Source of the DNA: Candidatus Bathyarchaeota archaeon
GTDB lineage: Archaea > Thermoproteota > Bathyarchaeia > Bathyarchaeales > Bathycorpusculaceae
NCBI GenBank assembly: GCA_963775895.1
Contig: CAVZKL010000014.1
Location: 1-55,659, forward strand
DNA: 55,659 nucleotides
Direction of reading: 5' to 3'
How positions within the stretch are numbered: position 1 is the stretch's first letter; each line of letters begins with the position of its first letter. Under the pieces are notes generated by a model. That model was given only the letters and a program-made list of their open reading frames with translations. It did not search any database and had not been told where the DNA came from. Of this stretch, positions 8,152 through 28,913 are shown in pieces. The translations under genes were made by a program, and so were the position numbers.

Positions 8152-9184
8152 CTATTCGCGTTTGTTGAAGTAGGCGACGCCTATGGCTATGTCTTTCATG
8201 TTGCAGACGCCGTCGTTGTTGACGTCCGCATTGGGGTTCCAGTTGGGCGAGTCTGGTTTGGTGTTGAACACCGCGACCATGTAGGCTATGTCCTTCATGT
8301 TCACCACTCCGTCGTGGACTCCTGGCGTTGAGCTTGATACGTCGGCGGGGATGCCGACGTGGACAGGATTGCTGAGCACGTAGGTGTTGTCTCCTGGGTT
8401 CACTTCGCCTGGAACCGTGTCGGCAACTGCCGTCAGAGTGTAGTTACCGGTTGCCAGTCCTGTGGCGTTCAAGACGATCGTTATCACTGTTGAATCGCCG
8501 GGGTTCTGCGTGACGCTTGCGATGCCAACGGCGGTGGCGTTGGCGTAGAGTGCGACGTTGTAGGTTTCGGGGAAGCCGCCGTGATCTTCAGCTGTCACCG
8601 TGACGTTGCCTGAGTATCCTTGACCGATGATAGTCTTTAAGGAGACCATTCCTGTTATTGCGACGTCGTGAGCTCCTCCGGCAACTATCACTGTTCCGTT
8701 GATGATGTGTATAGTTGATTGGTTGAGGCGGGATTTTTTCGTCTCCGAGTTTTACGTCGGTGAGCGTCAGACTTGTCGTTCCTCCGCTCATGGCTTTGAA
8801 GGTTAAGAGTGAGTATTGCCCGCCGCCGTTCACCGCGGTCATCCCCAGCAGCGTTGAGTATGCTAGGACTCGTCCGTGTGTGCTGTTGTAGTTGTTTGTG
8901 ATGTTTGCGTTGAAGAATGTTCCACCGCCAGTCTTCAGGAAGGGGCCTTCAACCCCGTTGGAACAGTTTACGATGGATCTCAGATAGAACAGGGTCAGTT
9001 GCCATGACGTGAAGTTGACGATGAAGTATACGGTAACGTTTATGCTGAAAGTTTGTCCGCCGTTCACGTTTGTGGTCTGAGGATCTACTGCAACCGTAGC
9101 TGTGACGGCGGATGCCCTGTAAATTGGGAACGTTAACAGGAATAGGCACAAAAAGAGATATACTATGATGTGCGTTTTTTTCAA
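8152..9184 (-). CDS. Array gene G1: signal peptide - cohesin-like - CARDB/Ig-like - dockerin (class A); frameshift near 8710
   Basis: ORFs 8588..9184 and 8152..8691; GQTFSINVTV...SWQ...EGPFLKTGG; duplicated Ca-loop DGVVNMKDI...DVNNDGVCNMKDI. Confidence 0.85.
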
Positions 9185-9191
9185 TATTCCC

Positions 9192-9261
9192 CTTCTCCCT
9201 CTAATTTGCAGTTAGTTAAATGGGAAAGATGGTATTTAAGAGTTCAGGAATTAACTTCTAT
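9192..9261 (-). promoter_or_regulatory. Array promoter/leader motif, copy P1
   Basis: + strand CTTCTCCCTCTAATTTGCAG...TATTTAAG-AG-TTCAGGAA-TTAAC-TTCTAT. Confidence 0.85.
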
Positions 9262-9338
9262 TACAAACGGACAATCTTGCATGCAAGGTTCACGCCTAAA
9301 AAAGGTAGGATGGAGAATGGGAGTTCTCCGTTGCGTGT

Positions 9339-12000
9339 TTACTGTGGGGGCACGTAGGTGAAGAGGAAGTTGACTGCGATTATACGTAGATCGAACACGT
9401 CGATGACACCATTGTTGTCCAAATCGTACGTTGATGCGGTGGGCCAAAGTGCATCTCCGATTTTGACGCCGAAGTATATTGCTACCAAGCGCAGGTCAAA
9501 GAGATCAACAGTGCCGTCATTGTTCACGTCACCCTGTATGGGTGAGAACGTGTAGACAAAGTATGGTCCAACGTCTATCTGGTTTAAGCCACTTCTCACG
9601 TACCGCAAGTCTGGGCCCGCTGGATAGCTTACGTTAGCTCCTTGGATGAAGATTGCGTCGCTCAAGTCATTCACTGCTCCGCTCTTCCAAACATGGTAGA
9701 ACGTTGCTTCAAATCTGATGGATACGAGAGTTTGACTTCCGTTTATCGGTGCGCCTGAAGTGTATCCTGTGATTACTCCGCCTGCGACGTTGATGGTTCC
9801 TGAACCCCAAGCGTTCCACGTTACATTGAAGTATGTGAGCAGCGTTGCGTTGTAATGGATTTCGAAGGCAAAGTCCTCGACGTTGAGAGCGTTGGAGATG
9901 TTGATTGTCACCTTGAAGTTTTCGCTGTACATGCGACAAGTCCTGCTCGCTGGGTTCATTTGAAGCAGCGGTTTTTCCGTGAAGTGAGCCGTGACCGAGA
10001 TAGTTGCCAGTCATACTCATCGTAGCTGGGTTGGCTGAACCGGACAAGGCGCCGCTCCAATAGTGGAAAATCCAACCCAGATTCGCAGAGGGGGTCAGGG
10101 TGACAACGTCACCGTAGTTGTAGTAAGGTCCTACAGGACTAACGCCGACTGAACCTTGGCCGTCGACGCTGACCGTCAACGTGTACTTGTTTTGAATGAA
10201 GGTAGCAGTAACTGACATGTTGCCTGTCACAGTAACCATAGTGGGGTTAGCTGTGCCGGAAGCGTCACCGCCCCAGCTGCCAAAACTATAGCCAGGACTA
10301 GGAGTAGCATTCAGCGTGACGACGGTGCCGTACGTGTAGGTGGCTTGATTGGGATTCTTAGTGACCGAGCCGCTGCCGACAGGCGTGACAGTGACGATCA
10401 GAGTGTACTGGTCCTGAGTGAAAGTAGCATTGACGATCGTGTTGCCAATAATTGTCAATGTTGCAGGATTGGCGGAGCCAGACAAGGCTTCGCTCCAATG
10501 ATCGAAGGTCCAACCAAGGGTGGCAGTCGCTGTTAACTGAACAACGTCGCCATAGTGAAGAGACCCAGTGTTGTTCTTGCTTACAGAACCGCTGCCGACA
10601 GTGTTAATCGTTAGTGTGTACACGTTCTGAGTGAAAGTACCAGTAACAGCCATGTTACCACTGATAGCTAGCGTGGCAGGGCTAGAAGAACCGATTAGGC
10701 CGCCACTCCAGTGGTCGAAGCTCCACCCTATTGTGGGAACAGCCGTCAACTGGACAACGTCGCCATAGTGGTAAGGTCCGCTGTTGTTCAGGTTCACTGT
10801 ACCACTGCCAACGGGATCCACTGACACGGATAGAGTGTACGTGAGTTGAATGAAGGTGGCAGTAACATCCATGTTGCCGGTTATTGTCAAGTTATCTGGG
10901 TTGGTGGAGCCAATTAGATTGCCGCTCCAGTGATCGAAGGACCATCCAATGTTAGCAGTAGCCGTCAATTGAACGACGTCGCCATAATGAAGGACTCCGG
11001 TGTTGTTCTTGCTTACAGAACCGCTGCCGACAGTGTTAATCGTTAGTGTGTACACGTTCTGAGTGAAAGTGGCAGTTACAGCTTTGTTGCCGGTCATATT
11101 TACGGTAGTTGAGCTAGATGTGCCTAGGGCGTCTCCGCTCCAGCTGGCGAACGTCCAGCCTATGTTTGCGTTGGCAGTTAGGTTGACATCCGTGCCGTAA
11201 GTGTATGTGGATTGGTCAGGATCCTTGGTGACTGAGCCGCTGCCGACGGGTGTGACAGTGACGGTCAGAGTGTACTGGTTCTGAGTGAAAGCGGCATTTA
11301 CAGAGGTATCGCCGGTCATAACTAGAGTAGCAGGGTTAGCCGATCCTGTTACCCCGCCACTCCAGCTGGAAAAACTCCAGCCAATGACTGGGATGGCTGT
11401 CAACAAAACTGCTTCTCCATTGTGGTAGTAAGGTCCGGTGTTGTTCAGAATCACGGAGCCGCTGCCTGAAGTCGTAACTGTCAGAGTGAAGGCTTGAACA
11501 TACGCTGTGCCGTCGATCGTTGTGTGTGTAATTGGCAGAGGGGGTATGTTTTGATCTCCGAGTTTTGTATCGGTCAGGTGAAGGAGTGAATTGCCTACTA
11601 CAGTGGCGTTGAAGGTGATAGTCGCTAGCACGCCACTGCCGTTCACGTAAGTGTTTCCAAATAGTGTGGCGTAAGCTTGCACGCTCCCCTGAGTGCTGCT
11701 GTAATTGTTGTTTATGTTTTCGCCGAAATAAGTTCCGCCCCCGCTTTTCAGGAACGAACCTTCAGTGACACCCGTGCAGTTTAGGACGGTGTTGTTGAAG
11801 TATACTGTGAATTGCCAAGAAGTGAGATAGGCAACGTCAGTAACGTTTACATCCACGCTGAAGGTTTTGCCGATTGTTACGTAGGAATTTGTAGGGTTGA
11901 TAGCTATTGTTGTCGAAGCTGCAGATATTTTGAATATTGGTATGATCAGCATGAGAAGAATGAGCGTTATAGGTACTAGTACGTATCTTTTTGATTTCAA
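9339..12000 (-). CDS. Array gene G2: signal peptide - cohesin-like - 7 InlB B-repeat/Flg_new-like repeats - cohesin-like - dockerin (class B); frameshift near 10000
   Basis: ORFs 9709..12000 and 9339..9959; seven ~72-aa repeats YTLT...GSGSV...YG.VV.LTA...GW.F..WSG; GDVNNDGTVDLFDL...DLDNNGVIDVFDL. Confidence 0.87.
10568..11070. repeat. 71-bp identical direct repeat (10568-10638 and 11000-11070) between B-repeat units of G2
   Basis: Direct comparison, offset 432 bp. Confidence 0.85.
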
Positions 12001-12004
12001 TTTC

Positions 12005-12076
12005 CTTTCTCCCTCTAAATTTGCAGTTTAATAACAGCAGAGCGGTCTATTTAAGAATTCAGGAATTAACCTCTAT
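12005..12076 (-). promoter_or_regulatory. Array promoter/leader motif, copy P2
   Basis: CTTTCTCCCTCTAAATTTGCAG...TATTTAAG-AA-TTCAGGAA-TTAAC-CTCTAT. Confidence 0.85.
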
Positions 12077-12184: not shown

Positions 12185-15100
12185 TCATGATACATAGGTG
12201 TATCCGAAGTTTGAAGCAGCAGTCCTCAGATCGAAAACGTCAATGATTCCACTGCCATCCAAATCATAAGATGATGCGACTGCCCAGTTGGGGTCTCCTT
12301 GCTTGACCAAATAGTATATTGCGACCGTGCGAAGATCGAGGACGTCAACGGTTCCATCGTTGTTCACGTCGCCTCTTATCGGAGAGAAAGTGTAAGCGAG
12401 ACCTGGATTTATATTGATCTGATTGAGACCACCTTTCTCGTAGTCCAAGTCCGGACCAACTAGATAGCTTAGATTGGCTCCATTGAAGAATATGGTGTCA
12501 ACCAAATCATTCGTCCAACCTGCAACGCTCTTCCAGACGTGACGGTAAGCAGCCTTGAGACTAACTGTCATTAACGTCTGTGTTCCACTCATCGCGACTC
12601 CTGCAGTGAGACCGTCTATCACTCCTTCAGCCTCATTCACATTCATCGTTCCTGATCCCCAAGCGTTCCAGCTGACGTTCACGTAGTCGAGCAACGTGGT
12701 GTTGTAGTGGATTTCAAACGCGAAACCGGTGACGTTGTCGGTATCAGAAACGTTCACCGCTAGAGTGAAAATCTCGTCAATTGTACGACAGACTCTGACT
12801 GAAGGATCCATTTCAAGCGTTGGAGCTTCAACGTACATATAGCCACCATCCTGAGACAAGTGTGCTATGGGTTCTGCCTGGGAATCACTCATTTTGTGGA
12901 TTGCAAAGTGAATAGAGGTCTCCTCCGGAGGTGTGGGACCATTCACAGAGAGCTCTAGCGTGAAGAGGGTTTGGCTTTGAGTTGTGTTGAAGCTGCCTGA
13001 CGTAGAAAGTGCCACGAGTCTACAGTAGCCTGGACCGTTCTCGTTCTTCGCGAGGAACCATTTGCCCGAACCCCACAAGGCGTCCAACGTGTCATTGTAG
13101 TAACAGTTCTTGAACGTCAACAAAGCACTGTCCCACGTGATATTGAAATCAAACCCCGACAAGTCAATCACGTTCTCGATCGTAACATTCACTTTGAAGC
13201 TACTGCCCACTTCAAGAGAACTCTTCTTTGTTGCAGAAGGACTAACGTACAACGAGGTTTCGTTCGTCTGTTCATTTCCCATAATTGTCACGGGTTCGGG
13301 AGATGAGTATTTGCGGACTGCTACCCAAAGCGATTTTATCGTTGCCGTTCCAGAGTAGACTCTGAATTCAACAGGCATCGAACCGAGAGTCTGTGAGTGA
13401 GTGGCCGCCAAAGAGTCATCAATGTAGTACTTCTCCGCACCAGACACGTACGTTATGCTATACCAATGGTAAGAATCTAGAAAACTTTGACTTATAGAAG
13501 TCGATTGAGCGTTAGGATACGTATAGGCAGCGAATGAGCCCCCACCACCTCTCTCAAACAAAGTGAAGGGGCCAGTCATGTCAGATGCGCAGAAGCCGAT
13601 CCAGTGATTGGTGGATGTTTCGCTTCCGACGTACGCTTCTGTCTCGAGGGCATATCCACTCCCGAAGCTGCTCAGACTCGTAATGGAGCCCGTTGTATCC
13701 AATACCAAGGCTCCACTCTCAACCCTCGGTGAACCTCTTGTCGACCATTTGCCGGTATCCAAAACGTTAAAATCGTCGAAAAACTCAAAGGTGTTTGTTC
13801 CATTCGAAGTCGAACTGGCTTTATAGTTACCGTAGTACATCCAGATCCATTTCAAGCTCGAGGTTGGTATGCTTGGAACTTTGACCCAGAAAATTGCGGA
13901 ATCTGAAGCCGTATAGTTCTGAATCCAATACGAGATCAACGTTGTACCGTCCGAGTCTGCGAACCTCAGGTCAGAGAAGTCTGTTTTCATGTCCGAATCG
14001 TAAGCCACGTTAATCCTCACCTGATAATCAATCAATTCGGGCGGTGTCGAGGGATGAGCGTAGGGATCGAATTGTTCAGTGTACGGTAATGCGCCTGAGC
14101 CATCTCTTCCTGCTATAGCATAGAGCTTTCCATTCATAATTCCACAGTTATGGCCGTCCCTTGGATGACTTGCTGATGGCAGTATCTGCCAAGTATTTGT
14201 TCCGGGATCATATACGCATGCGTCAGTGTAAATAAAGAAGTCATTCCGTGCGAAATGTAGATCTTTCCGTCAAGCGCAGCGTTTTCTCTGGCTAAGCCCC
14301 ACCTACTGAAAGGCATCGACGCTTTCGTACTCCAGCTGTCACTCGCTACATCATAAGCTTCGTTAGTGCTCAAATACCCCCCTGCAGGACCTCCACCGCC
14401 TATGGCATAAAGGACTCCGTTAACCTCAGAGAGTGAGAAAAACCTTCTAGGAGTCGGCATAGGAGCCTTCGACGTGTCATATGAATCCGTCAAAGGATCA
14501 TAAACGGTGACGTTTCCTGACGTGTCTCCATCTCTCCACCCGCCCATTACGTAGATCTTTCCGTCGTATGCTATTGATGAGGCACTGTGCATACCCAAAG
14601 TGATTGGAAAGTCCGAGCCAACGGACCATGAATCCGTAACGGTGTCATAAATGTACAGGGTTTTGTAGCCATCCCAGTTGTTGGAGTTGTCTATTCCTCC
14701 CCAGATGTACGCTTTGGTGCCAACTGCGCAAGCGGTTGCTGCGTAGGAATGATTACTCGGCATACTGGCTTTCTGTGACCAAGTGTCTGCTAAGGGGTCG
14801 TAGACATAAGTTTCGTTACAAACGTTTGTAGGAGATCCTGGACCGTAGCCTCCGAAAAGGTACAGTTTGCCGTTCACAACGACACTTGACGCGTCAGCTC
14901 TGGCTGCAGGCATCAAGGCTTTGTCACTCCACACTCCGTTAGGATTGCCAACTGGAGGCGTGTTGTTGATCGCGATCGGCTTCCTCTCAGTCCAGTTCCG
15001 ATTGTACCAGTCTGCGCTAGGTGGCACCGGAGGCGGTGGGGGCGGCGGAGGTGGTAATTCTTGTATCGACACTTTGAACCTCACGTCCCAATTCCCTTCT

Positions 15101-16017
15101 CGGTGGCTATAGTAGTAATAGACGTAGTCGCCTAACAGGTGAGGGAAGCCACATGCATCGTCGTTGGGCAGTATCGGGCTGTTCGGGCATTCACAAGCGC
15201 CGTCAAAGCAATTTGGTCCAAGCAATTCGCTGTAGAAGGCTCGAACCACCCATAGGCTACTGGGATACGACTCTGTTGTTAAATAGTAGGTGTTGTTCCT
15301 GTGGAAGATTCCTGGAGCGGCCAAAACGCCCATAGAACCATCGGTGCGAAGAACGATGTGGGGCGCCGTTACAATGTCTGTAAGGTTACTGGCGTGGCGG
15401 GCTCCGATGCTGTTTCCATTCTCAGCCGTGAGAAGCCACCACTCACCGTCAATGGGGCTGTGCCAGAGGAATGGATCATGTTCGCCGTTGCCACTCGCCG
15501 CGAGTTCTTGTTCTGTAAAAGTGTATCCGTCACTCACGGGTGAAGTGGCTCGGTATACTCCGTCAAGTATTCCGCCGTGTATGTAGAACATGTTTATTGT
15601 GCCGTCTTGTACGCCCACGGTAGGCCAACCCCATCCATCTACCAACGGAGTGGCAGATGAATAGCGAGTCCAGTTTTCCAAGTCTTCCGAGAAAGCCAAT
15701 CCCACTGACGCATGATCTGCTGTTCCATAGTATCCCCAGTATCGATGACCATCCTTGTTCAATTCAAGGATGTCTAGGTTATGAGGACCACCTCGGACCG
15801 AGTCCCAATATGAAGTGTTGTAGTCGAGGGCGACTTTTTCTTCGCCGAGAGTTGGAAAAGAGGAGACTGGTGGCGCGCTTGCTACAGGAGTCGGGACAAA
15901 TGTTAGTGCAACCAGATTTACGAATAGAATTATGAGAATTGCTGAAGCGAAACAGATTTTTGAACTCTGCTTGAAGCTCTTTATCGTCTTGTTCAGAATC
16001 AGCCCTACTGGTGACAT
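12185..16017 (-). CDS. Array gene G3: signal peptide - 5-bladed beta-propeller glycosidase-like - poly-Pro - DUF2341 with inserted Kelch propeller - 2 cohesin-like - dockerin (class B); frameshift near 14220
   Basis: ORFs 14134..16017 and 12185..14137; VGLAFSEDLENWTRY, HDPFLW; Kelch GKLYLFGG...YDPLADTW; DFSDLRFADSDG; GDVNNDGTVDVLDL. Confidence 0.85.
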
Positions 16018-16023
16018 CTAACC

Positions 16024-16091
16024 CCTTCCCTCTAATCTGCACAGAATACTCTATTGAAACGATATTTAAGACTTGAGGAAATAAGTTCTAT
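16024..16091 (-). promoter_or_regulatory. Array promoter/leader motif, copy P3
   Basis: CCTTCCCTCTAATCTGCA...TATTTAAG-AC-TTGAGGAA-ATAAG-TTCTAT. Confidence 0.8.
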
Positions 16092-16151
16092 TGTCAATTC
16101 CGCTCCTTGAATTTGAAGTATTAAATGAAAAAAGGGGGTTGTGAGGACCCA

Positions 16152-19128
16152 TTATGGATAGGTGAATCCGTAGTTGTGCGCTATCGTCACCAGGTCGAAT
16201 ATGTCAATGATGTTGTCGCCGTTCAAATCGTACGCTGAGGCTTGTGGCAGTTTGGATCTCCGAGTTTTGTATCGTAGAAAGCTGCTACAGTTCTAAGGTC
16301 AAAAACATCCACGACGCCGTTGTTCTCTACGTCTCCTTGTATGGGCGAGAACGTGCAGGTGACGCTTGAGCTCACAGTGATCTCATTCATCGCATCCTTT
16401 ACGTAGTGAAGCTTCCCACCACCCGAATAGCTCAAGTTGGCCGATTGGAAGAATATTTGACCAATCTGGTCGTTCTTCCAACCTGGGATCTTGCTCTCTT
16501 CCTTCCACACGCGGTAATAGGCTGCGCTGAACTGTACTGTCATTAACGTTTGAGAACCGCTAATGGAGTTGCCTGATGCTGTGCCAGTGATTTTGCCATT
16601 GGTGTCGTCTATGTTCGAGGTTCCTGATACCCACGCGGTCCAAACGACTCCTGTGCAATCCAAAAGTGTGGTGTTATAGTCGATCTCGAATTCGAAGCCG
16701 TTCACGTCGTAAGCGTTTGTGACTGTTATGGTTATCACAAAGTTCTCATTATGCACTCGACATGTCCTAGTCGTTGGACTCATTTGAAGACCGGGTTGTC
16801 CGCCCGTGATCTTGTAGGTTCCGTCATCGACTGTGTGGGTAATGGATGTGTAATGCGAATCGCTGAGTTTGTGAGTCAAGAAATGAATTGAAGTTTGTTT
16901 CAACAGGTTGGTTTGAGGATCTTCAACGCGGAATTCGATCGTGAACATCGTTTGGCTACCGGTGGTGCTGAAGCCGCTGACAGTAGACACAGCTACGAGC
17001 TTGTACCATCCTGCACCTGTTTCATTCTGTGCAACGAACCAGTTGCCTGCTCCCCACATAGCATCCAACGTTTTATTGAAATAGCAGTTGCTGAAGGTGA
17101 CCAACGTGTTGTCCCAAGTGACGTTACAATCAAACCCAAACAGGTCAGTGATACTGTCAATCTTGACGCTAACGTTGAAATATGTGCCTATGTCACTCAA
17201 TGTTTTCTGTACCAGCGATGGGTCAATGTGGAGTCTCGCTTCATAGGCTTCTTCCTGTCCCACGGTTGTCGTGGGTTCCGGTGATGAGTATTTCCGAACA
17301 GCTACCCACTGGGATTTGATCATTGCCAGTCCAGAGATGCCCTGAACTCTACAGGCATCGGGGTAAGGGTTGACACATGAGTGGCTTTTAAGCTGTCATC
17401 GATGTATACTTTCTCCGCGCCAGCCACAAAGGTAATAGTGTACCAATGGTAAGCGTTTAGGTAGTTCTGGTCAAGCGGCGTTGTTTGACCAACAGGAGGA
17501 TAGGTCCATGCTTGGAAAATGCCACTGGAACGATCAACTAGGATAAAAGGTCCAACCGCATCAGAAGCACAGAATCCAAGCCAGCCATTTGATGTTGTAC
17601 TCCCAACGTAGGCCTCTGTCTCGAGAGCATGACCATTTCCGAAACTGCTCAGACTAGTGACTTGGCTTACCGCGTCAATTATCAGAGCACCTCCCTCGAC
17701 TCTTGGAGAACCTTTGAGAGACCATTTGCCTGCGTCTAAAGTATTGAAATCGTCGAAAAAGTCGAAAGTAGTTGCTCCGTTAGATACAGAACTTGCAGCT
17801 GGGTTTCCATAATACATGTAGACTGTCATCGTGCTCGATCCAGGTATACTTGGAACCTTGACCCAAACAATCGCTGATACCGAATCGGTATAGCTTTGTA
17901 CCCAACACGAAATGAGCGTTGTGCCGTCTGCATCTGTGAACCTCAAATCAGAAAAGTCCGTTTTCATGTCTGAATCGTAAGCCACGTTGATCCTAATTTG
18001 ATAATCGACTAGACTGGTGGACCAGGAGGTTGATAATAGGGATCGAATTGTTCGTTGTAGGTAAGTGCGCCTGAACCGTCTCTCCCTCCGATGGCATATA
18101 GCTTCTTTCCGATGACTCCACAATTGTGACCGTCCCTCGCATGCTTTGCCGATGGAAGTATTTGCCAAGTATTCGTAACAGGATCATACACGCATGCGTC
18201 AGTAGTAGAAAGAGGAAGTCATGCCATGGGAAATGTAGATTTTTCCGTCCAATGCGGCGTTTTCTCTTGCTAGACCCCACCTGCTGAAAGGCATCGATGC
18301 TTTGGTGGTCCAAGTGTCGGATGCAATGTCATAAGCTTCGTTTGTGCTCAGAGTAAGATCTGTTGGTCCTCCTCCGCCTATAGCGTACAGAATTCCGTTG
18401 ACCTCAGAGAGCGAGAAGAACCGTCTAGGAGTCGGCATAGGAGCCTTCGATGTGTCATACGAATCCGTCACAGGATCATACACAATCACGCTGCCTGGAG
18501 TGGTTCCGTCTATCTCAAGCCGCCGATCACATAGATTTTTCCACCATATGCTATTACAGATGGGCTGTGGAGTCCTGATCGTGACTGGATAGTCTGCGCC
18601 TGATGACCAAGAGTCTGCAATCGAATCGTAAATGTAAAGTGTCTTGTAGATAGCTGCCGCCGCTGCTTATTCCTCCGAAGACATATGCTTTCGTGCCAAG
18701 TGCACACGCACCTGCCGCGTAAGAGTGACCGCCAGGCATGCTGGCTTTCTGTGTCCAGCTGTCAGTTGTTGGGTCATAGGCGTATACTTCGCTGCGAACG
18801 TCGCCTGCTCCGCCTGGACCGTATCCGCCAAATATGTAAATCTTGCCGTCTATGATGGCGCTTGATGCGTCCGATAGTCTCAGAGGCAGTGGGGCTTTGT
18901 CGCTCCAGATTCCAACAGGCACTTGCGACAATGTGTTGTCGATTGTTATGGGCTTTCTCTTCGTCCATGACGGATCGTACCAGCTTGGAGGCGCGGTGAC
19001 CGATGGGGTGGAAACGAAGGCGAAAATAAACATGGTGGAGAGGAGGATTGTAAGGATTGCTCGGCACGATGGGTTTTTGAACCTAGTGGAACATGAATTG
19101 CACTGCTTATTGAGAGAACTGGTTTCAT
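16152..19128 (-). CDS. Array gene G4: signal peptide - DUF2341 with inserted Kelch propeller - 2 cohesin-like - dockerin (class B); several frameshifts
   Basis: Fragments 18946..19128, 18554..19033, 18510..18707, 18199..18489, 18009..18191, 17320..18168 and 16223..17323 are collinear with G3; true end YDLNGDNIIDIFDLVTIAHNYGFTYP* at 16152. Confidence 0.8.
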
Positions 19129-19585: not shown

Positions 19586-20804
19586 CTATGGACTGTCTGG
19601 AACGTAATAGTTGAAGTTGGTAGCGACTACAACTAGGTCGAAGATATCAATGGTGCCGTCAGTCTTCACGTCGTATTTTGCTGGAGCTGGCGGGACAGCC
19701 TTGTCGTATTAGTGATGCAACCGTACGAAGGTCGTAAACGTCTACCTGTCCGTCAACTGCTACATCGCCTTGAATCAGATTGATCGTTAGGTCGATAGTT
19801 GCTGGTGGTGTGATCGGTGTAGGTCCGATTCCGTCTACATACAAAATGCCTTCAACAAAGCTTAGGTCACCATAGGTAGTATCAAGCGAAACTGTTGCGG
19901 CGTAGCGCATGGGGTGATGTGTGTTCTCCATATGTGTGTTTCTCTATCGTCGAATGCTACTTTGAAAGTCAATGTGAACAATAGTATGCGGTCACCCGTG
20001 GATGGACCGCCACTTGAAATCGAGACGTGAACAACGCCTGCTGTACTGTTGTCTACTATGCCTGTTCCAAAGGTGCTCCACGTGATCCACTCGTTATAGA
20101 ACATTAGCAGTTCTGACGTGTAGTCTATTTTGAGGTCATAGTCTGTGAGGCTTGAAGTGATGTGGGTTGCGTACACTTCAACTTTGAAGTATTTTCCGTA
20201 TTCATAGAGCTTGCTTGGATGGATGTTAACCAACGTGAAGTCGATGTCTGGGACTGTGGCGCTCATGCTGTACGGCCCGTCAGTCGGGTGTTGGAGTGAT
20301 AGCGTTCGCATTGTGATCACTGAGTGTTACTGTGTCGAAGTGCATTGATGTCGTATATGGAAAGTTGCCAGCTTTTACAATTGTAAAAGTAATTGTGAAA
20401 AGTGTTGTGGGACCTGCGCCTGTATACCCAAGCCCACCAGTCGCAACCGCTGAGTACCTAACGTAGCCCGGACCACTCTGTACCGGCGTGTTGGGCGGAA
20501 CCCATGCCAATGGTTCAAAGTATCCCTGAGGCCACACACTACTGAGAGGCGCATTATCGAGGCTTAGGAACGTTATTACCGAGCTATCCCAAGTAATTTT
20601 GATGTCGAAGCCGAACAAATCGGCAACGTTGCTAATCTGTACAGGTACCGTAAAAGTGCCTGGGAAGTCACTTGGGGTTTTTGACACCGACGGAATTGAA
20701 ATATCGGCCGTAGCTGCCGACACTTTGTTAATAGCGAGACCGAATGTGAAGACACTTGCGAGAAGCAATAGAGTTAGTATACTTGCTGCGTATTTCGTTT
20801 TCAT
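19586..20804 (-). CDS. Array gene G5: signal peptide - 2 cohesin-like - dockerin (class B); frameshifts
   Basis: Fragments 20280..20804, 19862..20320 and 19659..19931; DLFGFDIKITWD; GDVAVDGQVDVYDL; true end YDVKTDGTIDIFDLVVVATNFNYYVPDSP* at 19586. Confidence 0.8.
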
Positions 20805-20960: not shown

Positions 20961-23900
20961 TTAGCTGAAGTTTGCGCCTATCAGTACGAGGTCGTAGATG
21001 TCGATTACTCCGTTGCCATTTAGGTCATATGCTGATGCTGCAGACCACAGTGGGTCACCCTGTTTGACATCGAAGTATGCGGCCACTGTTCTCAAGTCAG
21101 TGATGTCGACGATGCCGTCGTTGGTCAAGTCTCCTTGAATCGGCATGAATTTGAAAGCAACGTTGTTCACGCTGATCTGACCGAGCCCGCCTTCCTGGTA
21201 CACGAGTGGTTGAACCCCTACCCCTGAGAAGCTGAGGCTGGCACTGTGGAACCAGATTTGACCATCAAGCTCGTTGACTTGGCCTTGTTTCCATATCATC
21301 GTTGCAATGTCTTGGAACGTGATGTTCAGGAGCCAGCGGTTTCCGCTCATAGGAATTCCAGTTACATATCCTTCGAGTATGCCGTTCACAGGGTCGACAT
21401 TTGTGATTGTTCCTGAACCTAGTTCTCCCCATGAAACGCTTACGTAGCTCATCAATGTAGGACTGTAATATATCGTAAAGTTTAAGCCGTCCACAGTTAT
21501 TGCGTTGGTCACATTTACCTGCACTGTGAAGTGCTCGCCATATTTTCTACACGTTATCGTGTTCTGAGACATCTGAAGCTGGGGCTGATACGGCGGGCCG
21601 CCGTTAATGTTATATATTCTGCCGTGGCCGAAACCACTATCTCCAGTTCCGCCTAAGCTTTCAACTCCTACATACCAACAATCTAATGTGTTATCACTAT
21701 TGACAATGACGTTACCGTTGTCATCGACTTTGAAAGTCAGTCCTCCTGCTTCGCCCCCTTCCCAAGTACCTGCTGTGCCAATTGGAAGTATTGGATTGTA
21801 TGGAGAGAAGGTCAAGTTTGTCCAGTCTCCAACGCGGCAATATGCGACACCGTCTTCTTTGTAGTTGCCCGTCAAAGTCAAGTACATGGAACCGCCGTAT
21901 ATGTACGTGTAAAGCGGAGTGAGCAACGAGCTATACCAACCTGAACCTTGTGGGACAAGTATGTTTTTCTGCATATACGTCCAAGTCAACCCGTCCGGAG
22001 AACTTAGACAACTCACGGTTGTAGGGCCAATGTACCCTATCCAGAACGTGGAGTTGACCCGCGCACATGAAAACTCGTTGGCGCCTGAGACTATTGGATT
22101 TCCTGAATATCGGGTTACGTTTCCTACAGTGTAGCCACCACTCCCATCGGGCGCAATATCAAGAAATGCCAGACCTACCGACCCAGATTGGTAGTAAACC
22201 CAATAGGTTCCATTAATTTTGATATGGGTGGTTGTCCAGCATACCTCTGAGCTTTCCCATGTGCTTGGCAAAGGAGACAGTACTGGATTTCCGGCATATT
22301 TGGTCCAGTTGAGGCCGTTGGTGCTCCAAGCAAATCCGGCTCGTCTTTGTCCTATTGGGGCCCCATTGTAGAGCATAAAGTAAGTGCCAAAGTCGTGGTC
22401 AAACCATATGCATTCGTCGTAGACCCAGCCTTTTTCCCAAGGTTGCGTCGCCACAAAATCTGTGCGGACACGATCAGCCACGCCACCCGTGAAGTTGATT
22501 ACTACTTCGACGGACCACTCATGCTTCCCCGTCAATCCAAGCGCGCTCGCCGAAGCTGTAACGTTAAATACTCCAAGATTGCTGAAGGTGCAGTTCCATG
22601 AAGCAGTCTGTAGGTTGTAATCAACCTGCTGTTGCAAGCCGTTCATGTACCAAGTTATATCTGCCGGAATTATGTAAGACACCTGAAACGTTTGCTGACT
22701 TCCGCGATCGAGCGTTACCAGTGCCGCAGGTGATGCACTAGTAACCTCCAAATCTGACATCGTTTTGAAACTGAACGTCTGGTTGTTCCATATTCCAAAC
22801 AAGGGGTCTATCGCACACACCTGCCACGTGTAAGTAGTGTTAAGCTGGAGACCACTGACACCAACAGAATATGCACCATTATACACACCTAGACCCTGAC
22901 CCGAACCGATATTCGGACTCGTAGTAACATAGTAGTTCATCGAGTCGTTCAGATAGTCCGTCAAATCAAAGCTAAGCACAGACAACGAGGGACCAACCGT
23001 TGCGCCGATTGCTGGTGACAGGTTTGAGATGCTTGGAAATTTGAGCGAGAAGGTTTCTTCAGACGCAACGGTGTAGAAGGATGAAGGCGACTGCTGATTG
23101 TTGTACTCCGTTGACAACCATGACGCGCTCCTAACTATGTTTGAAATTCGCACCTCATCAACTGCACCGTTCCAAAATCGACTATAACCACTAAGATATC
23201 TTGCACCTATCACTCCATGATTAGGATCGTCGCTAGAAAACCAGCTTGGCACGCTACTACTCAAGGTTTGCGCTGCACCATTAAGATAAAAGGCAATATT
23301 ATTCGCGGCAGTTACCGCGTCGCACCAATACGCCCACGTTCCAGCAGTCAAATAGGTACTAACGCCCGTTAAGCCATAATGGTACAGAGAGTTTCCAATG
23401 AGTATTTCGTTGTCAGTGGCGAATATCCCCATACCAACTCCGCTTCCACCCGAATCTGTCTGTCCAAAACTAACAATCGGACTGCTTTGGTTGAGCGTGG
23501 TTGGATTTGCCCAACATTCGATAGTATAAGGCGGTGACAGCACAAAGGGAATAGTAGCATAGGAGCTTGAACCGTCGAAGCCCGCAGCACCATCAATCTT
23601 CCCACTCACATTCTGACTGACCCCACCATATGGCGTGCAATTGTAGTGGTATCCAGTCGAATCAATGAATGTTCCAGTAGCCTGCTCCAGATGCTGCACC
23701 ATAAGATAGTTTGAATCCCACGTACCTGCACTGTTCTGCTGATTAGAAGCGGAGGGGTTCCCATAATACATGTACAAAACAGTATCACTCACCGAGGACA
23801 GAGTAGGAACGTTAACCCAGGCGACCAACCTGCCGGCGCCATTATCATAGAATTCTATTTCATGATTGAGTTTGTTGCCGTAAGTATCAGCAAAGACAAT

Positions 23901-25460
23901 GTCGTTGCCGCTGACTTGAGCCTTATTCGCCAAATCTAGATCCGTAGTATCTATCAAAACTGTGAAGTTTGCTAGACTTCCGGTGACTTTCGCGTGGTCA
24001 ATTATTATTGCTTTTCTGTAAGGCCAGTCGATGTTCCACCAGTTTCCATAAAATTCTATAGTTTTGAAACTGAACGTCTGGTTGTTCCATATTCCAAACA
24101 AGGGGTCTATCGCACACACCTGCCACGTGTAAGTAGTGTTAAGCTGGAGACCACTGACACCAACAGAATATGCACCATTATACACACCTAGACCCTGACC
24201 CGAACCGATATTCGGACTCGTAGTAACATAGTAGTTCATCGAGTCGTTCAGATAGTCCGTCAAATCAAAGCTAAGCACAGACAACGAGGTGGACACCCGC
24301 GTTGCGCCGTTCAATGGCGACGGGTTTGAAATTGTCAGAGTCGCAAATGCTTCCTCAGACCCAACGGTGTAGAAGGATGAAGGCGACTGCTGATTGTTGT
24401 ACTCCGTTGACAACCATGACGCGCTCCTTACGATGTTTGAAATTCGCACCTCATCAACTGCACCGTTCCAAAATCGACTATAACTGGTAGAATGTCTTGC
24501 ACCTATCACCCTGTAATTGGCGTCGTTAGAGTAATAGCTGTTCGGGCTAGAACTCAGGGTTTGCGCTGCACCGTTAAGATAAAAGGCAATATTATTCGCG
24601 GCAGTTACCGCGTCGCACCAATACGCCCACGTTCCAGCAGTCAAATGGGTACTAACGCCTGATAAGGCATATTGGTACGCATAGTTTCCAACGGCTAGCG
24701 CGTTCTTAGTGTTGTATATGCCCATACTAACTCCGCTTCCGCCTGAATCTGTCTGCTGAAAACTGACAATAGCGTTATCTTGTGTGAGCGTCACAGGGTT
24801 TGCCCAACATTCAATAGTATAGGGCGGTGACAAGCCAAATGGAATAGTGGCATAAGAGCTTGAACCATCGAAACCAGCAGCACCATCAATCTCTCCAGTA
24901 ACATTATGGCTGACCCCGCCATTTGGCGCGCAGTCATTGTGGTTCCCAGTCGAATCAATAAACGATCCAGTAGCCTGCCCGAGATGCTGCACCATAACAT
25001 AATTCGAATCCCACGTACCAGCAACATTCTGCTGATTAGAAGCGCTTGGATTTCCGTAATACATGTAGAGGATCGTGTCTGCAGTCGAAGAGAGACTCGG
25101 CACCTTCACCCACGCAACCAAATAACCAGTCGGTGAATTGAATAGCTCTATCTCATGATTCAGCTTGTTCCCAGAATAATCGGCAAAGGCAATGTCGTTG
25201 CCACTCGATTGTGCATGAGATGAGAGACTGGAATCCGTAATATTGATCAGAATAGGAAAATTAGTGAGATTTGCCGAAACCTTCGTATGATCGATCATTA
25301 TGTTCTTCCGATACTGCCAATTGGAATCCCACCACACTCCACCCCCCTTAGCAAAATAGGGATTGAAGGCAACAGCAAAAAAACAGATGAGCAAAAGACA
25401 AGTTATCGTCAGAACAGAGAATTTCTTGGATTTCGTTCTAGACAAGCACATAATCCCCAA
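20961..25460 (-). CDS. Array gene G6 (1499 aa): signal peptide - 2x[DUF2341 - LamG/ConA-like - FN3/Ig-like] - Ig - 5-bladed glycosidase-like propeller - cohesin-like - dockerin (class B)
   Basis: WQYRKNIMIDHTKV, FWNGAVDEVRISNIVRS twice; GFAWSTNGLNWTKYAGNPVL; GDLTNDGIVDITDL...DLNGNGVIDIYDL. Confidence 0.9.
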   Translation of the reverse strand: MGIMCLSRTKSKKFSVLTITCLLLICFFAVAFNPYFAKGGGVWWDSNWQYRKNIMIDHTKVSANLTNFPILINITDSSLSSHAQSSGNDIAFADYSGNKLNHEIELFNSPTGYLVAWVKVPSLSSTADTILYMYYGNPSASNQQNVAGTWDSNYVMVQHLGQATGSFIDSTGNHNDCAPNGGVSHNVTGEIDGAAGFDGSSSYATIPFGLSPPYTIECWANPVTLTQDNAIVSFQQTDSGGSGVSMGIYNTKNALAVGNYAYQYALSGVSTHLTAGTWAYWCDAVTAANNIAFYLNGAAQTLSSSPNSYYSNDANYRVIGARHSTSYSRFWNGAVDEVRISNIVRSASWLSTEYNNQQSPSSFYTVGSEEAFATLTISNPSPLNGATRVSTSLSVLSFDLTDYLNDSMNYYVTTSPNIGSGQGLGVYNGAYSVGVSGLQLNTTYTWQVCAIDPLFGIWNNQTFSFKTIEFYGNWWNIDWPYRKAIIIDHAKVTGSLANFTVLIDTTDLDLANKAQVSGNDIVFADTYGNKLNHEIEFYDNGAGRLVAWVNVPTLSSVSDTVLYMYYGNPSASNQQNSAGTWDSNYLMVQHLEQATGTFIDSTGYHYNCTPYGGVSQNVSGKIDGAAGFDGSSSYATIPFVLSPPYTIECWANPTTLNQSSPIVSFGQTDSGGSGVGMGIFATDNEILIGNSLYHYGLTGVSTYLTAGTWAYWCDAVTAANNIAFYLNGAAQTLSSSVPSWFSSDDPNHGVIGARYLSGYSRFWNGAVDEVRISNIVRSASWLSTEYNNQQSPSSFYTVASEETFSLKFPSISNLSPAIGATVGPSLSVLSFDLTDYLNDSMNYYVTTSPNIGSGQGLGVYNGAYSVGVSGLQLNTTYTWQVCAIDPLFGIWNNQTFSFKTMSDLEVTSASPAALVTLDRGSQQTFQVSYIIPADITWYMNGLQQQVDYNLQTASWNCTFSNLGVFNVTASASALGLTGKHEWSVEVVINFTGGVADRVRTDFVATQPWEKGWVYDECIWFDHDFGTYFMLYNGAPIGQRRAGFAWSTNGLNWTKYAGNPVLSPLPSTWESSEVCWTTTHIKINGTYWVYYQSGSVGLAFLDIAPDGSGGYTVGNVTRYSGNPIVSGANEFSCARVNSTFWIGYIGPTTVSCLSSPDGLTWTYMQKNILVPQGSGWYSSLLTPLYTYIYGGSMYLTLTGNYKEDGVAYCRVGDWTNLTFSPYNPILPIGTAGTWEGGEAGGLTFKVDDNGNVIVNSDNTLDCWYVGVESLGGTGDSGFGHGRIYNINGGPPYQPQLQMSQNTITCRKYGEHFTVQVNVTNAITVDGLNFTIYYSPTLMSYVSVSWGELGSGTITNVDPVNGILEGYVTGIPMSGNRWLLNITFQDIATMIWKQGQVNELDGQIWFHSASLSFSGVGVQPLVYQEGGLGQISVNNVAFKFMPIQGDLTNDGIVDITDLRTVAAYFDVKQGDPLWSAASAYDLNGNGVIDIYDLVLIGANFS
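22762..24289. repeat. 229-bp apparently identical direct repeat (22762-22990 and 24061-24289) inside a ~1.3-kb tandem duplication in G6
   Basis: Direct comparison, offset 1299 bp; second near-identical block at about 23066-23185 and 24362-24481. Confidence 0.9.
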
Positions 25461-25530
25461 TCTCCCCTTCTAATTTGCAGAATAAAATACATACCTGAGA
25501 ATATTTAAAGGTTCAGGAACGCAATTCTAT
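25461..25530 (-). promoter_or_regulatory. Array promoter/leader motif, copy P6
   Basis: TCTCCCCTTCTAATTTGCAG...TATTTAAA-GG-TTCAGGAA-CGCAA-TTCTAT. Confidence 0.85.
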
Positions 25531-26094
25531 TCAGAATCCAAGCGCGCGTGTTTGAAGCACTTCAATAAGCTTGAAAAGAACTTGGCCATCAACAAAAACA
25601 AGTTCTAACGAATCTGAGGTAATGAATTCATAGTTGAGATGAACTGTGCGCAAAATCATTCCGCGCAAATTAAAAGGGAAAGGAACAACGAGCGCACAGC
25701 CCATCTCATATCTGTAACGAAGCCGAGGGCAAATATAAACATTCTTACGAATGGAAAAGTTTCAATCGACTCAACAATAGAGAAACCCTTCCACCGCTCA
25801 GCACTAGCCATACAAGAACTGTTCATCCATCTATCAGACAATTGTTTCAAGTAAAACAGAATTTGCATAGCGCACATTCATTGCCAATAATGGTGCCCCA
25901 TAAGTGTATTCGATGAGAATTTCCGCAACAACACTTATATTTTACGCAGACGATAATTCTTGTAGGGAGAAAGGGAAGGACAGCCGAGCGCACCGCCTAT
26001 GGGTAGCTTTGGTTTTTGAACCGTTTTTCGCCAAACAGAACAACAGTCCCGCTTGTTCCGCTACTTGTATTTCATACCTAATGCTTCAGAAAGG

Positions 26095-28913
26095 CTAGTC
26101 ATGCTGGTTGAAATAGAATACGGCTATGGCTATGTCTCTTATGTTGCAGACATCGTCGCTATTGATGTCCGCGTTGGGATTCCAGTTAGATGAGCTCGGT
26201 TTACTGTTGAACAACGACACCAAGTAAGCGACATCCCTCATGTTCACAAGGCCATCCGGGACTCCAGGAGTGATGCTGGACACGTCTCCGGGCACGCCGA
26301 TCCTGATGTTTTGACAGCATCCTGTGTTGTCGTCCAAGTCCGATTCGTTTGGCACCGCGTCCAAAACGGCTGTGAGGGTGTAGTTGCCGTAGCTGAATCC
26401 ATCGGCATTCCACGTGAAAGTCACCACGGTTTGCTGCCCGCTTAAGAAGCCGATCAGTTGAAATGAAGCGTTGGGAATCGGGTTTTGATTGGCATAGATG
26501 GTCAAGTTGGATATCTCATCGTAATCGCCTTCATCGTTCATAGTCACGGTTACAAGGGTTAAGTATCCCTTTCCCACGATAGGCTTCGAGCGGCTGACCG
26601 CGGTCACGCTGATGTCATCATGAGTCCCAACACTCGGTCCGAGATGCACCGATGCCTCCGATGAAGTTGTTGTCAAACAAGTACGTTTCGTTGGGAACTG
26701 GAATTGCGTAAGCAGATATGGTGTAGTAGCCTTCACCGCAATTGTCGGTAAACCATACGCACTGATAACTCGTTATCTGCCACGGAGGAAGTGCGACGAT
26801 GTTCAGCGTTGCAATCGGAATGCCATTAGCACGAACGGTGACGTTGCAATCCTGAGCCGCATAATATTCATTATAAGCAGAGACCGTGATTTTCACGGAA
26901 TGTCCGACGTACGTGTCGGACGTCGACGTTGTCACGTTGACAATGCCAACATTGGGCTGAGGAGCCCGTATAGTGAAATTGGAAACAAATTCGGGTGAAG
27001 CCCGTCCGCCGATAAATTCCCGTGCACAGGTGTAAACCGTCGCAGGTCCTGGGTAAGTATTCATAGGGATTTGCCCCGCGTTGAAGATGACAACGGTTTG
27101 ATTTGGCTGGACATAATATGCTCGAGATACGGTAGGTCTAAGAGTTGCAGGTTAACATCCTGAACAGTTACACTCACTTCAGCAACAGTTGGAAATATAC
27201 GATTATTCGTGATGGTCACGATTAGACGCAACGGTTCGCCCAAGTCAAAGTAATTTTTCGGTACACCGTTTATATCGCATGGAACCGCTGATGTCACTTG
27301 AACGAGCCAGTTTATGCCAAACTCACATACGTCCGACACCGTTTTTGTTCCGATGGTTACACTAGCGTTAACGCTATATTCTCCAAAATCGGGCAAAGCA
27401 TAAACAAGGAAAGTGAAGTACGCAATTCCGTTGCTAAAGGTTTGGGTAGCTCTGCGTATCCTCAGGGTTCCGTTTGGATAGTAAACGTTGAAGGTGACCA
27501 CTTTGCCAGCCACTGGAACGAGATCGTAAGTTGCATACGCGTATATGATGATCAATTCTTCTGGTGCGAAAGTGTCGCTGGGCTGGTTCAACCCATTTCC
27601 ACCTTTTTGAGTGTAAACGTCAATGGATGGACCCACCGGGAGTGCAATTACTGTCACGATCTTGGAGAATGAGCCAGTCAGGTTATTGTCATCTGTCACC
27701 ACGAGAGTCACGTTAAATGATCCGGGATTTGAGAAGGCGTGGTTGAGAATCATTCCTTGTCCGTGGAAACCGTCACCGAAGGTCCAGTTGTAGTTCACGA
27801 TAATGCCGTGGAGGTTGTTCGCGGTTGAACTTGAGGCATCAAAAGTTATTGAGTCATTCACGTATGGCAAACCTGGTGACCAGGTGAAGTACGCTGTGGG
27901 CGGTTTAGGAATTCCAGGAAGTAATTCAAAGAAACCTGGCTGAACGTTCGCCGATATTTGGGCGTTGTTTGCGTCGAGAAGCAAGACGTTTTGAAGAGCA
28001 ATTGATGAAGAACCTGTGTCCTTGACCCTGAAGGTGACATAAGCCAGAGTGCCACTTCCGTTTGCACCGATATTAGTGGCCAAATGTGCGCCGTAGGGAG
28101 TTATCACACCAGCGTTGTTATCAATGGTGCCTGGCTGCCACACAGTGGTTCCGGCACTTGCCAGAAACGGGCCCTCAGTGTAGTTGATGCATTCAAGAAC
28201 GTTGGGGTTGAAGGATACGCCTGCTTGCCAATAGTTCAGGTTAAGGATAGTAACTAGGCGCACAAGTAATGGTTATGTTGACTGTGAATGTTCCGTTTAT
28301 TGGAATCCATTCTGGTGGCCCGGAAAGGTTAGCTGGTGAAACAAATACGTCATACACGTCTGGTGGAGGAGCCGTCACTTGGACAGTTCCGTCTGAATCT
28401 GTGTGCGGAATTGGCTGTCGGAGGAATCTTCTCGTCGGCCAACTTCGTCTGAGTAAAATGAAGAGTTGTGTTTCCCTCACCTATGGCTTGAAACGTCACC
28501 TGAGCCAAGAGCCCATTTCCGTCAACCCAAACACCTACACCCAAAAGAGCACATGCCGCAAACACAAAACCAGTAGTGGAATTGTACGTGTTGTTCAGCG
28601 ATACGGTGAAAAATGTTGAACCACCAGAGTTCAAAAATGATCCTTCAGAAACTCCTGTGGCGCTTAGCACATCGTTGCGGTAGTAGAGCCCGAACTGCCA
28701 ACCCGTACAGTTCACTACGTCCGCGATCGTGATGTTAACCAGAAAAGTCTGACGCTGCGAAACAACATAGGTAGTGGGGGCAACTGCTATCGTCGTGGAT
28801 TGTGCGATGCCTCTTAATGGTGCGAGTTCGAACAGAAGCACAAAAACTAAAAAGACGCAGAAGCAAGCTTTACTCAGAAACTTGCTCGATAGTATTGCCT
28901 TATGAAACGTCAA
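26095..28913 (-). CDS. Array gene G7: signal peptide - 2 cohesin-like - PKD - Ig-like - CARDB-like x2 - dockerin (class A); several frameshifts
   Basis: Fragments 28350..28913, 28241..28480, 27061..28263, 26618..27064 and 26095..26736; PKD YNWTFGDG...GSFNVTLVVTD; DGLVNMRDV...DINSDDVCNIRDI. Confidence 0.8.

Follow-up and report, generated by a model that had tools for sequence, protein, structure and literature searches.

A conserved cohesin–dockerin gene cluster of Bathyarchaeia with two distinct dockerin classes and possibly separate cohesin partners

Introduction

The cohesin–dockerin systems closest to the one described here are the dockerin groups of Ruminococcus flavefaciens FD-1, the cohesin and dockerin proteins of anaerobic methanotrophic (ANME) archaea and the clostridial type II X-dockerins. 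We compare them with a cluster of seven genes for secreted modular proteins (G1–G7, minus strand, 8152-28916) on contig CAVZKL010000014.1 of Candidatus Bathyarchaeota archaeon (assembly GCA_963775895.1). The window analysed is this full contig of 55,659 nt, contig C14 of a bin of 1.77 Mb with 28 contigs and a completeness of 88.8%. Its dockerins belong to two sharply distinct classes, A and B, and its cohesins were sorted into type I (the EGxFL type), type II (the GFDxxxTWD type) and type III (the dockerin-adjacent type). We put at roughly 50% the probability that the cluster is a conserved, non-cellulosomal cohesin–dockerin system of Bathyarchaeia with two separate plug families, in which class A pairs with type I and class B with type II cohesins.

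According to the accessible part of PMC5301203, R. flavefaciens FD-1 has six dockerin groups with four specificities, an adaptor (ScaC) and half dockerins. The window resembles that system in having several dockerin groups in one genome; in R. flavefaciens these are partly set by putative recognition residues and map to separate cohesins. ScaC carries one cohesin and one dockerin and is like G2 in architecture, and the half dockerins resemble the single-loop dockerin of a neighbouring open reading frame (ORF), G8. The closest solved relative of class B is itself an R. flavefaciens dockerin (5lxv_B, E 6e-4). It has Val-Phe at positions 10-11 of the first Ca loop, so the hydrophobic pairs found at these positions in class B are not unprecedented. 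Unlike the window, R. flavefaciens has no cohesin-derived module fused to a dockerin, and binding was measured there, whereas our comparison uses sequence and models. The window, in turn, has no cellulase cargo and carries the cohesin and dockerin of what is presumably the same system on one chain.

In ANME archaea, the portion of PMC9012536 available to us describes many dockerin and cohesin proteins, including binding-protein cargo and scaffoldin-like chains. These proteins are archaeal, non-cellulolytic and secreted, as in the window; they share with it ABC substrate-binding cargo and the combination of a dockerin with several cohesins in scaffoldin-like chains, and a scaffoldin-like protein of this kind also lies on contig C3 of the genome studied here. 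In contrast, that portion of the source describes no two-class system, CARDB–dockerin unit or fused cohesin–dockerin unit, and the lineage here is Bathyarchaeia. Full-text searches of a literature collection without most subscription journals turned up no paper on a cohesin–dockerin system of Bathyarchaeia or on these fused units.

The clostridial X-dockerins (XDoc) are the closest relatives of class A by sequence. Seven of the eight matches of the G1 unit in the PDB are type II dockerin or XDoc chains, with 2y3n_B at 8.7e-7, 5k39_B at 9.8e-6, 4wi0_B and 4u3s_B at 1.1e-5 and 2b59_B at 2e-4; our references among them are the Clostridium thermocellum CipA XDoc with the SdbA cohesin (2b59), the Acetivibrio cellulolyticus ScaA XDoc (4u3s/4wi0) and the Bacteroides cellulosolvens Cel48 dockerin (2y3n). 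As in X-dockerin dyads, class A has an Ig-like module directly before the dockerin, the beta-sandwich and dockerin being joined with no linker. The first loop is lengthened in both class A and 5k39_B, and the B. cellulosolvens dockerin has Met at position 10, as class A does (PMC8063739, in its available part). Unlike the dyads, class A has a CARDB module upstream (3idu) rather than a clostridial X module, its host is archaeal and the cargo of the window system is not cellulolytic. The domain arrangement also differs, since the class A unit superposes on 2b59_B, 4u3s_B, 4wi0_B and 5m0y_B with a root-mean-square deviation (rmsd) of 12-15 Å and a TM-score of 0.29-0.36; solved XDoc chains match the unit over 145-149 columns despite this poor superposition (TM-score 0.29-0.32).

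Results

Gene content of the cluster

Pfam families found in G1–G7 are Cohesin, Dockerin_1, CARDB, PKD, Flg_new_2, DUF2341, Laminin_G_3 and Kelch, and the N-termini of all seven proteins, as read from the translations, are hydrophobic signal-like segments. The features below include G8, which lies outside the range covered by the original prediction for this locus (8152..26300); dockerin residues are those at positions 10-11 of the two Ca loops.

G1, 8152..9184, minus strand: signal peptide, type I cohesin (8708-9094), CARDB, class A dockerin (8155-8358; MK/MK)
G2, 9339..12000, minus strand: signal peptide, type I cohesin (11518-11907), 7 Flg_new_2 repeats; C-terminal end by HMM scan, type III cohesin (9543-9974) and class B dockerin (9348-9542; LF/VF); adaptor form
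G3, 12185..16017, minus strand: signal peptide, N-terminal domain, proline linker, Kelch propeller, DUF2341; in the C-terminal part, type II cohesin (12851-13252), type III cohesin (12383-12826), class B dockerin (12188-12382; VL/VF)
G4, 16155..19075, minus strand: Kelch, DUF2341, type II cohesin (16826-17233), type III cohesin (16346-16789), class B dockerin (VF/IF)
G5, 19589..20804, minus strand: signal peptide, type II cohesin (20283-20705), divergent type III cohesin, class B dockerin (VY/IF)
G6, 20961..25460, minus strand: 1499 aa; signal peptide, two DUF2341 + Laminin_G_3 repeats, propeller-like region; in the C-terminal part, type III cohesin (21144-21578), class B dockerin (20967-21143; IT/IY)
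G7, 26095..28916, minus strand: signal peptide, two type I cohesins (28404-28790, 27940-28269), PKD, CARDB copies (Pfam PKD_4, CARDB, Cohesin); C-terminal class A dockerin (26098-26300; MR/IR)
G8, 30345..31328, plus strand: 327-aa ORF with a single class-A-like Ca loop, PDGVINMKDIA, near 30420 (MK)

Two dockerin classes

The original prediction had proposed two dockerin classes from the residues at positions 10-11, and a phylogeny of the excised modules bears this out. In a tree of 27 dockerins from the source genome (G000), a genome of another family (G118) and a locus of a Bathyarchaeota metagenome-assembled genome (L001), class B separates from class A with support of 100/100. Insertion-loop and canonical-loop subtypes of class A received no support as clades in this tree, and we rejected that subdivision.

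The residue pairs of G1, G2, G3, G6 and G7 are those originally read, as are those of G4 and G5 once their second loops are read in shifted frames, and the single MK loop of G8 was confirmed. So were the loop-1 insertion of G1/G7 (DVSSSTPGVHDG / DVSSITPGVPDG) and their NWNPNAD linker. Relatives were collected with the last 180 residues of a class A paralog (616 proteins matched, of which the best 120 were analysed) and with the last 221 residues of G3 for class B (102 proteins matched), and residues were counted from the alignments. Class A relatives have Met at position 10 in 111/120 first loops and 109/120 second loops, followed by Lys or Arg at position 11 in 106/120 and 107/120. In class B relatives, Val, Ile or Leu occupies position 10 in 99/102 first loops and 95/102 second loops, and F/Y/L/I/V/W occupies position 11 in 96/102 and 88/102; Met occurs in none of the 102, and Lys or Arg in 0 and 1. 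These signatures support two sharply distinct classes across the relatives, and the observation behind the prediction is real and well above chance.

Both Ca loops of class B are canonical, with Asp at position 12 in 101/102 and 98/102 relatives. In class A, loop 2 is canonical; loop 1 of G1 and G7 has a 6-residue insertion yet retains its DG..N..D end, and by a loose pattern the insertion is also present in 70/120 class A relatives. Dockerin_1 (PF00404) scores are 29.3 bits for G1, 28.5 for G2, 25.8 for G3 and 27.2 for G6, against a cut-off of 22.9. G7 scored 21.7 bits in one scan and 24.0 in another, and the dockerins of G4 and G5 were matched only as halves because of frame breaks. Helices are predicted at residues 170-177, 189-195 and 205-213 of the class B unit model and at 132-140 and 165-173 of the class A unit model.

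A divergence of this kind need not mean different partners. The classes might bind overlapping cohesins, with the difference at positions 10-11 reflecting descent and packing against neighbouring modules; we regard this as distinctly improbable. The classes do differ over their whole length (a long branch) and are fused to different modules, and in R. flavefaciens the six sequence groups correspond to four specificities (PMC5301203, in part). However, the signatures are kept across relatives 40-88% identical, which suggests selection at positions 10-11. The domain grammar described below is strict, mixed chains being absent from the 102 class B proteins and from the best 120 of 616 class A proteins, and the accessible part of PMC8063739 names positions 10-11 as specificity determinants, as the original prediction had assumed. 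Judged from the sequences, orthogonal pairing of the two classes is plausible.

Two-domain units and cohesin types

Each dockerin class is part of its own two-domain unit. The class A unit is a C-terminal CARDB–dockerin pair; the best 120 of its 616 matches cover 70-100% of the unit, 118 of them at least 93%, at an identity of 49-88%. AlphaFold2 models the unit as a confident single body with no linker (predicted local distance difference test, pLDDT, 94.5; predicted TM-score, pTM, 0.84). The domain preceding class A, earlier called CARDB-like, is CARDB by the Pfam scan of G7 and by the fold of the G1 unit model, whose N-terminal half matches the CARDB structures 3idu_A/B (P. furiosus) and 2kl6 (E 1e-6, TMt 0.68-0.75). 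CARDB (PF07705) matched the L001 ortholog of G7 at 2.1e-7 and an upstream copy in G7 at 7.9e-5, whereas the last G7 copy (E 1.1e-3, 19.5 bits) fell below the 22.7 cut-off and the Pfam scan returned no CARDB match for G1.

The class B unit is a type III cohesin followed by the dockerin, with a gap of 0 residues in 101/101 junctions. Nearly all of the 102 relatives have an identity of 42-65% over 95-100% of the unit. The claim that a class B dockerin always follows a cohesin-like module holds for 5/5 in the window and for 101/102 relatives, the exception being one truncated protein. In a library of 1.84 billion representatives, 93 clusters match the unit at E <= 1e-30, and nearly all of the 150 best matches listed end within a few residues of the C-terminus. 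AlphaFold2 again predicted a confident single body (pLDDT 90.8, pTM 0.82). The type III part of this model matches solved cohesins with a Foldseek probability of 1.0 (4dh2_A, TMt 0.71), and further fold matches include 2vn5_C (TMt 0.72) and the Archaeoglobus fulgidus cohesin 2xdh (TMt 0.69). The top Foldseek matches of the whole unit, 3kcp_A and 4fl4, suggested a cohesin–X–dockerin arrangement, which we rejected: at an rmsd of 22-23 Å they share domain content only.

The three cohesin types of the original prediction also cluster. On a tree of 20 modules, their labels can be placed with 2 changes, the lowest number possible, which was equalled by 0/200 shuffles. Support is 88/94 for the adjacent type (G2, G3, G4, G6) and 94/97 for the EGxFL core (G1, the N-terminal cohesin of G2, 28404-28790). 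The GFDxxxTWD cohesins form two supported subclades whose union is without support, and the second cohesin of G7 and the adjacent cohesin of G5, both long or truncated rows, sit on long branches outside their own groups. Pfam Cohesin (PF00963, cut-off 24.1 bits) scored 39.8 (G3) and 31.4 (G5) for type II, 36.8 (G2 N-terminus) and 27.8 (G7) for type I, and 27.8 (G6), 22.8 (G3) and 16.4 (G2) for type III. In the alignment, type III lacks the segment bearing the type I and type II signature motifs and has an insertion of its own.

Since type III is always welded to the dockerin and lacks that motif segment, a role like that of an X module is favoured for it. It could instead be the true class B socket, acting as an intramolecular clasp or swapping into dimers or chains while type II binds something else, but this appears quite unlikely. 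In its favour are the inseparability of type III and class B (101/102), the confident one-body model, the cohesin fold and the hydrophobic class B faces. Against it, the zero-residue junction would leave little reach to the usual binding face, the signature segment is absent, and type II cohesins would then lack a partner confined to the same genomes.

Domain grammar and distribution

The order type II – type III – class B is found in 45 of the 102 class B proteins, and another 12 carry a pair of type II cohesins. The G2 adaptor form, with a type I cohesin at the N-terminus, accounts for 27, whereas 17 consist of the unit alone and 1 is truncated; none of the 102 contains a class A dockerin. 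The gap between type II and type III is 9 residues in 47/57. In the best 120 of 616 class A proteins, cohesin matches above 80 bits comprise 20 modules in 19 proteins, all type I, and matches labelled type II or III score 13-27 bits.

Class A is a genome-wide tag and class B is cluster-specific, two points absent from the original prediction. The source genome has 17 matches to the class A unit on 11 contigs. Their cargo includes Peptidase_C25 with a NosD beta-helix, a C39-like peptidase, a PQQ propeller and beta-helix proteins; a further copy lies behind the apparent end of a substrate-binding protein, identified by eye and with no Pfam family. An S8 subtilase of this genome bears a type I-like cohesin, and three cohesins occur in a scaffoldin-like protein. 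Class B occurs in this genome in the window only, in 5 copies.

We searched 201 sampled genomes of class Bathyarchaeia; the sample includes related genomes that are not independent of each other, and absence means not found in those genomes. The class A unit is present in 22/201 genomes and type I-like cohesins in 30/201, including 15 of those 22. The whole class B unit occurs in 2/201 (G000 and G118), which are exactly the genomes with type II cohesins at 145-219 bits, all other matches being at or below 55 bits. Two peptide patterns found 3 whole-unit loci; the distribution given here is that of the genome search. Relatives come from records titled Candidatus Bathyarchaeota or Bathyarchaeia. 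Similar DNA occurs in sequencing runs labelled as wetland and freshwater-sediment metagenomes (best word share 0.43).

Several other loci carry related modules. A record titled Candidatus Acidiferrales bacterium (L003) contains a whole class B unit in a 774-aa protein, 50% identical, and is either a mis-binned archaeal contig or a case of transfer. In the source genome, contig C27 has two near-identical type II cohesins outside the cluster (4009-6709, L024). One belongs to a 561-aa protein with an N-terminal hydrophobic segment, a NosD/beta-helix, a C-terminal Ig-like domain and no dockerin, and may serve the class B system as a dockerin-free receptor or anchor. The same contig has an 85-aa frame (33196-33450) with only a signal-like segment and a canonical two-loop dockerin (MK/LR), which looks stand-alone. 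Contig C3 (5454-12544, with L023 covering 7396-10465) has a second cohesin/dockerin cluster, including a scaffoldin-like protein of 641 aa that combines three cohesins with CARDB and a class A dockerin of the canonical-loop kind, and several cohesin fragments in short frames.

Pairing of dockerins and cohesins

Twenty of the 22 class A genomes are without a true type II cohesin, so class A needs another socket there, and the type I-like cohesins are sequence-based candidates for that role in those 20 genomes. Only class B genomes have type II and type III cohesins, one of which is therefore likely to be the class B socket. In the model that we favour, the rigid CARDB–dockerin unit of class A would serve as a general tag at the C-terminus of proteases, beta-helix proteins, propellers and binding proteins, most likely plugging into the widespread type I (EGxFL) cohesins. 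The class B unit would most likely plug into type II (GFDxxxTWD) cohesins, with type III most likely a built-in support, like an X module, and not a socket. If class B binds type II, proteins of the G3–G5 kind would be self-complementary: their type II cohesin lies mostly 9 residues upstream of the class B unit in the same chain, and they could chain head to tail. G6-type proteins would end such a chain, and G2-type adaptors (type I ... class B unit) would bridge it to class A, linking general cargo to the class B assembly.

We ran complex prediction on a single pairing, the class B unit with a type II cohesin, both partners being given as alignments. Three runs gave an interaction score (ipSAE) of 0.46, 0.41 and 0.20, with a median of 0.41, compared with 0.00 for the best of 3 controls. 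The partners had pLDDT values of 88 or more, and at least 98% of contacts were common to the runs. The ipSAE mark used is reached by 116/157 solved complexes and 2/215 mismatched pairs, and the score is at or below 0.60 in just 18/157. The modeling thus gives weak support to binding of type II cohesins by the class B unit.

Several points weigh against the A–I and B–II pairing. Its sole binding test is weak, with one of three runs at 0.20, and the prediction model may remember solved cohesin–dockerin complexes. Part of the co-occurrence of type II with class B is trivial, as 57/102 proteins carry both on one chain. The dockerin of a classical scaffoldin does not bind the cohesins of the chain to which it belongs; here type I stands with class A and type II with class B on the same chains, which favours a crossed scheme. 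Since type I occurs with both A (G1, G7) and B (G2), and type II with B (G3–G5), every scheme leaves some proteins self-complementary. What speaks for type III as a support is its fusion to the dockerin together with a confident model. Because the two classes diverge along their entire length and are joined to different beta-sandwich modules, positions 10-11 cannot be singled out as what causes any specificity. Finally, six of the seven cluster genes in the window are frame-broken.

In the crossed scheme, class A would plug into type II and class B into type I, and proteins of the G1/G7 and G3–G5 kinds would alternate in a hetero-assembly. We consider this unlikely. It draws on the presence of type I on class A chains (G1, G7; strong matches in 19 of the best 120 of 616 relatives) and of type II on class B chains (57/102), and on the constant adjacency of both gene sets; apart from G2, it also fits classical scaffoldin logic better. 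However, it is at odds with the 20/22 class A genomes that have no true type II cohesin and with the weak prediction support for class B plus type II, and the G2-type adaptors (27/102), which hold type I and class B in one chain, break the very rule on which it leans.

The original prediction had also proposed that two orthogonal cohesin–dockerin codes give an ordered, hierarchical assembly, an interpretation that is reasonable and partly supported. The two classes, the three cohesin types and the G2 adaptor architecture do invite a hierarchy; the part played by positions 10-11 is less certain, given the other differences between the classes. An extension of the favoured pairing, which we consider less likely than not, is that proteins built as cargo – type II – type III – class B polymerise head to tail into a scaffoldin-free extracellular filament or matrix. 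Such a matrix would display lectin-like and glycosidase-like cargo, with a cohesin recruited as an X-like support, and G2 adaptors would dock the class A secretome (C25, C39 and S8 peptidases, binding proteins).

Synteny and frame breaks

Gene order in locus L001 is that of the window, and its frames are open:

867 aa (partial): I, I ... A
1313 aa: ... II-III-B
409 aa: II-III-B
586 aa: II-II-III-B
902 aa: I ... III-B
353 aa: I-CARDB-A

In G118, the two systems lie side by side on one contig, intact. In the window, by contrast, mapping of orthologs and of protein P0072 shows that six of the seven cluster genes are split, with at least 17 frame breaks in 20.7 kb, a feature that the original prediction does not mention. 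G1 has one break near 8706; its intact ortholog (L001 13590-14648, 353 aa, identity 74-75%) maps to 9211-8708 and 8703-8155 in two frames. G2 has one break near 9999, and its ortholog (L001 10760-13465, 902 aa) maps to 12072-10000 and 9998-9345. G3 is broken near 14230, where P0072 maps to 15009-14230 and 14230-12194 in two frames. G4 has at least 5 breaks; P0072 (977 aa, identity 62-66%) maps in four pieces, and 18201-18050 is a shifted stretch. G5 has 3 breaks, its intact ortholog (L001 7338-8564, 409 aa) mapping to 20822-20289 and 20284-19589 with a shifted segment at 19934-19677. G7 has 4, at about 28410, 28247, 27125 and 26660, plus shifted stretches, and its ortholog (L001 3-2603) maps in five pieces. 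G6 is the sole cluster gene without a break.

The cluster could be a decaying set of pseudogenes without present function in this genome, which we consider very improbable. The breaks are denser than in the long tRNA-synthetase genes, of which 1 of 3 is split. However, they are all shifts, with no stops inside the in-frame aligned segments of the broken cluster genes, and identity to intact orthologs is 52-75%. A lipoamide dehydrogenase gene is split as well as the tRNA-synthetase gene, both of them housekeeping genes, and several cohesin/dockerin genes on other contigs of this genome are also broken. Contigs of other sequencing runs carry a restoring indel at three break sites: X1 and X3 have indels at 8706/8715 (G1) and one base absent at 9999 (G2), and X1, X2 and X3 have one base absent at 26653 (G7). 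These contigs derive from related strains, 90-99% alike, so they are evidence that open frames occur in nature rather than of an error in the window; they can neither prove nor disprove the window's own breaks, and the parts that they leave uncovered are uninformative. A homopolymer cause was not evident in the sequence contexts, break positions being approximate. Most of the breaks are probably assembly or strain indels.

The split dehydrogenase is a dihydrolipoyl dehydrogenase-like gene (48837-50211). ORF 49204-50211 starts at profile position 125 of 474; the overlapping ORF 48837-49277 presumably supplies the N-terminal part that it lacks.

Repeats and other features of the cluster genes

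Flg_new_2 matches an array of 7 stretches in G2 (Pfam E 4.6e-83). Contig joints from X1 and X3 within 10238-11351 skip or repeat parts of it at high depth (912 and 235); probably the repeat number is strain-variable, or the repeats confuse short-read assembly. G3 (Kelch_1 7.8e-37, DUF2341 6.4e-27, Cohesin 1e-15) and G4 are tandem paralogs (12185-19075), with direct repeats at a spacing of 3977-3978 and an identity of 70-82%. G3 has an extra N-terminal domain of ~330 aa compared with G4, with no Pfam match. An internal duplication of ~1.3 kb in G6 (a DUF2341 + Laminin_G_3 + Ig-like block, within 22759-24820) includes 232 nt that are 100% identical between the copies at 22759-22990 and 24058-24289; neighbouring parts are 81-90% identical. 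This pattern suggests recent duplication, gene conversion or assembly collapse. Structure-atlas matches to residues 870-1290 of G6, the propeller-like region, all fall below 0.8 and are a lead only.

Outside the cluster, G8 matches the class A dockerin HMM (E 7.5e-6) and, weakly, the cohesin HMM (E 0.002), but no Pfam family at E <= 0.001. Genes for GT2-like and GT4-like glycosyltransferases, as assigned by NCBIfam, are located at 33137-36557, within a few kb of the cluster. Given the many N-x-S/T sequons in the cluster proteins, these surface proteins are likely to be N-glycosylated.

Discussion

Bathyarchaeia are abundant in anoxic sediments and wetlands. We know of no cultures that would serve for binding tests, and to our knowledge little has been learned of how these archaea keep extracellular enzymes at the cell. 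Bacterial cellulosomes already provide established cases of multiple dockerin specificities, adaptors and X modules, so what the cluster adds is a new lineage and a variant, not a new kind of mechanism: it probably represents an archaeal variant of cellulosome-style plug-and-socket assembly of secreted proteins. If the pairing of class A with type I and class B with type II is true, it would also supply two more natural and probably non-cross-reacting module pairs for protein assembly work. For the organisms themselves, a two-tier system, with a general CARDB–dockerin tag on peptidases and binding proteins as the first tier and a cluster-specific unit on lectin-like proteins as the second, would be a concrete and testable model of how Bathyarchaeia organise their secreted proteins.

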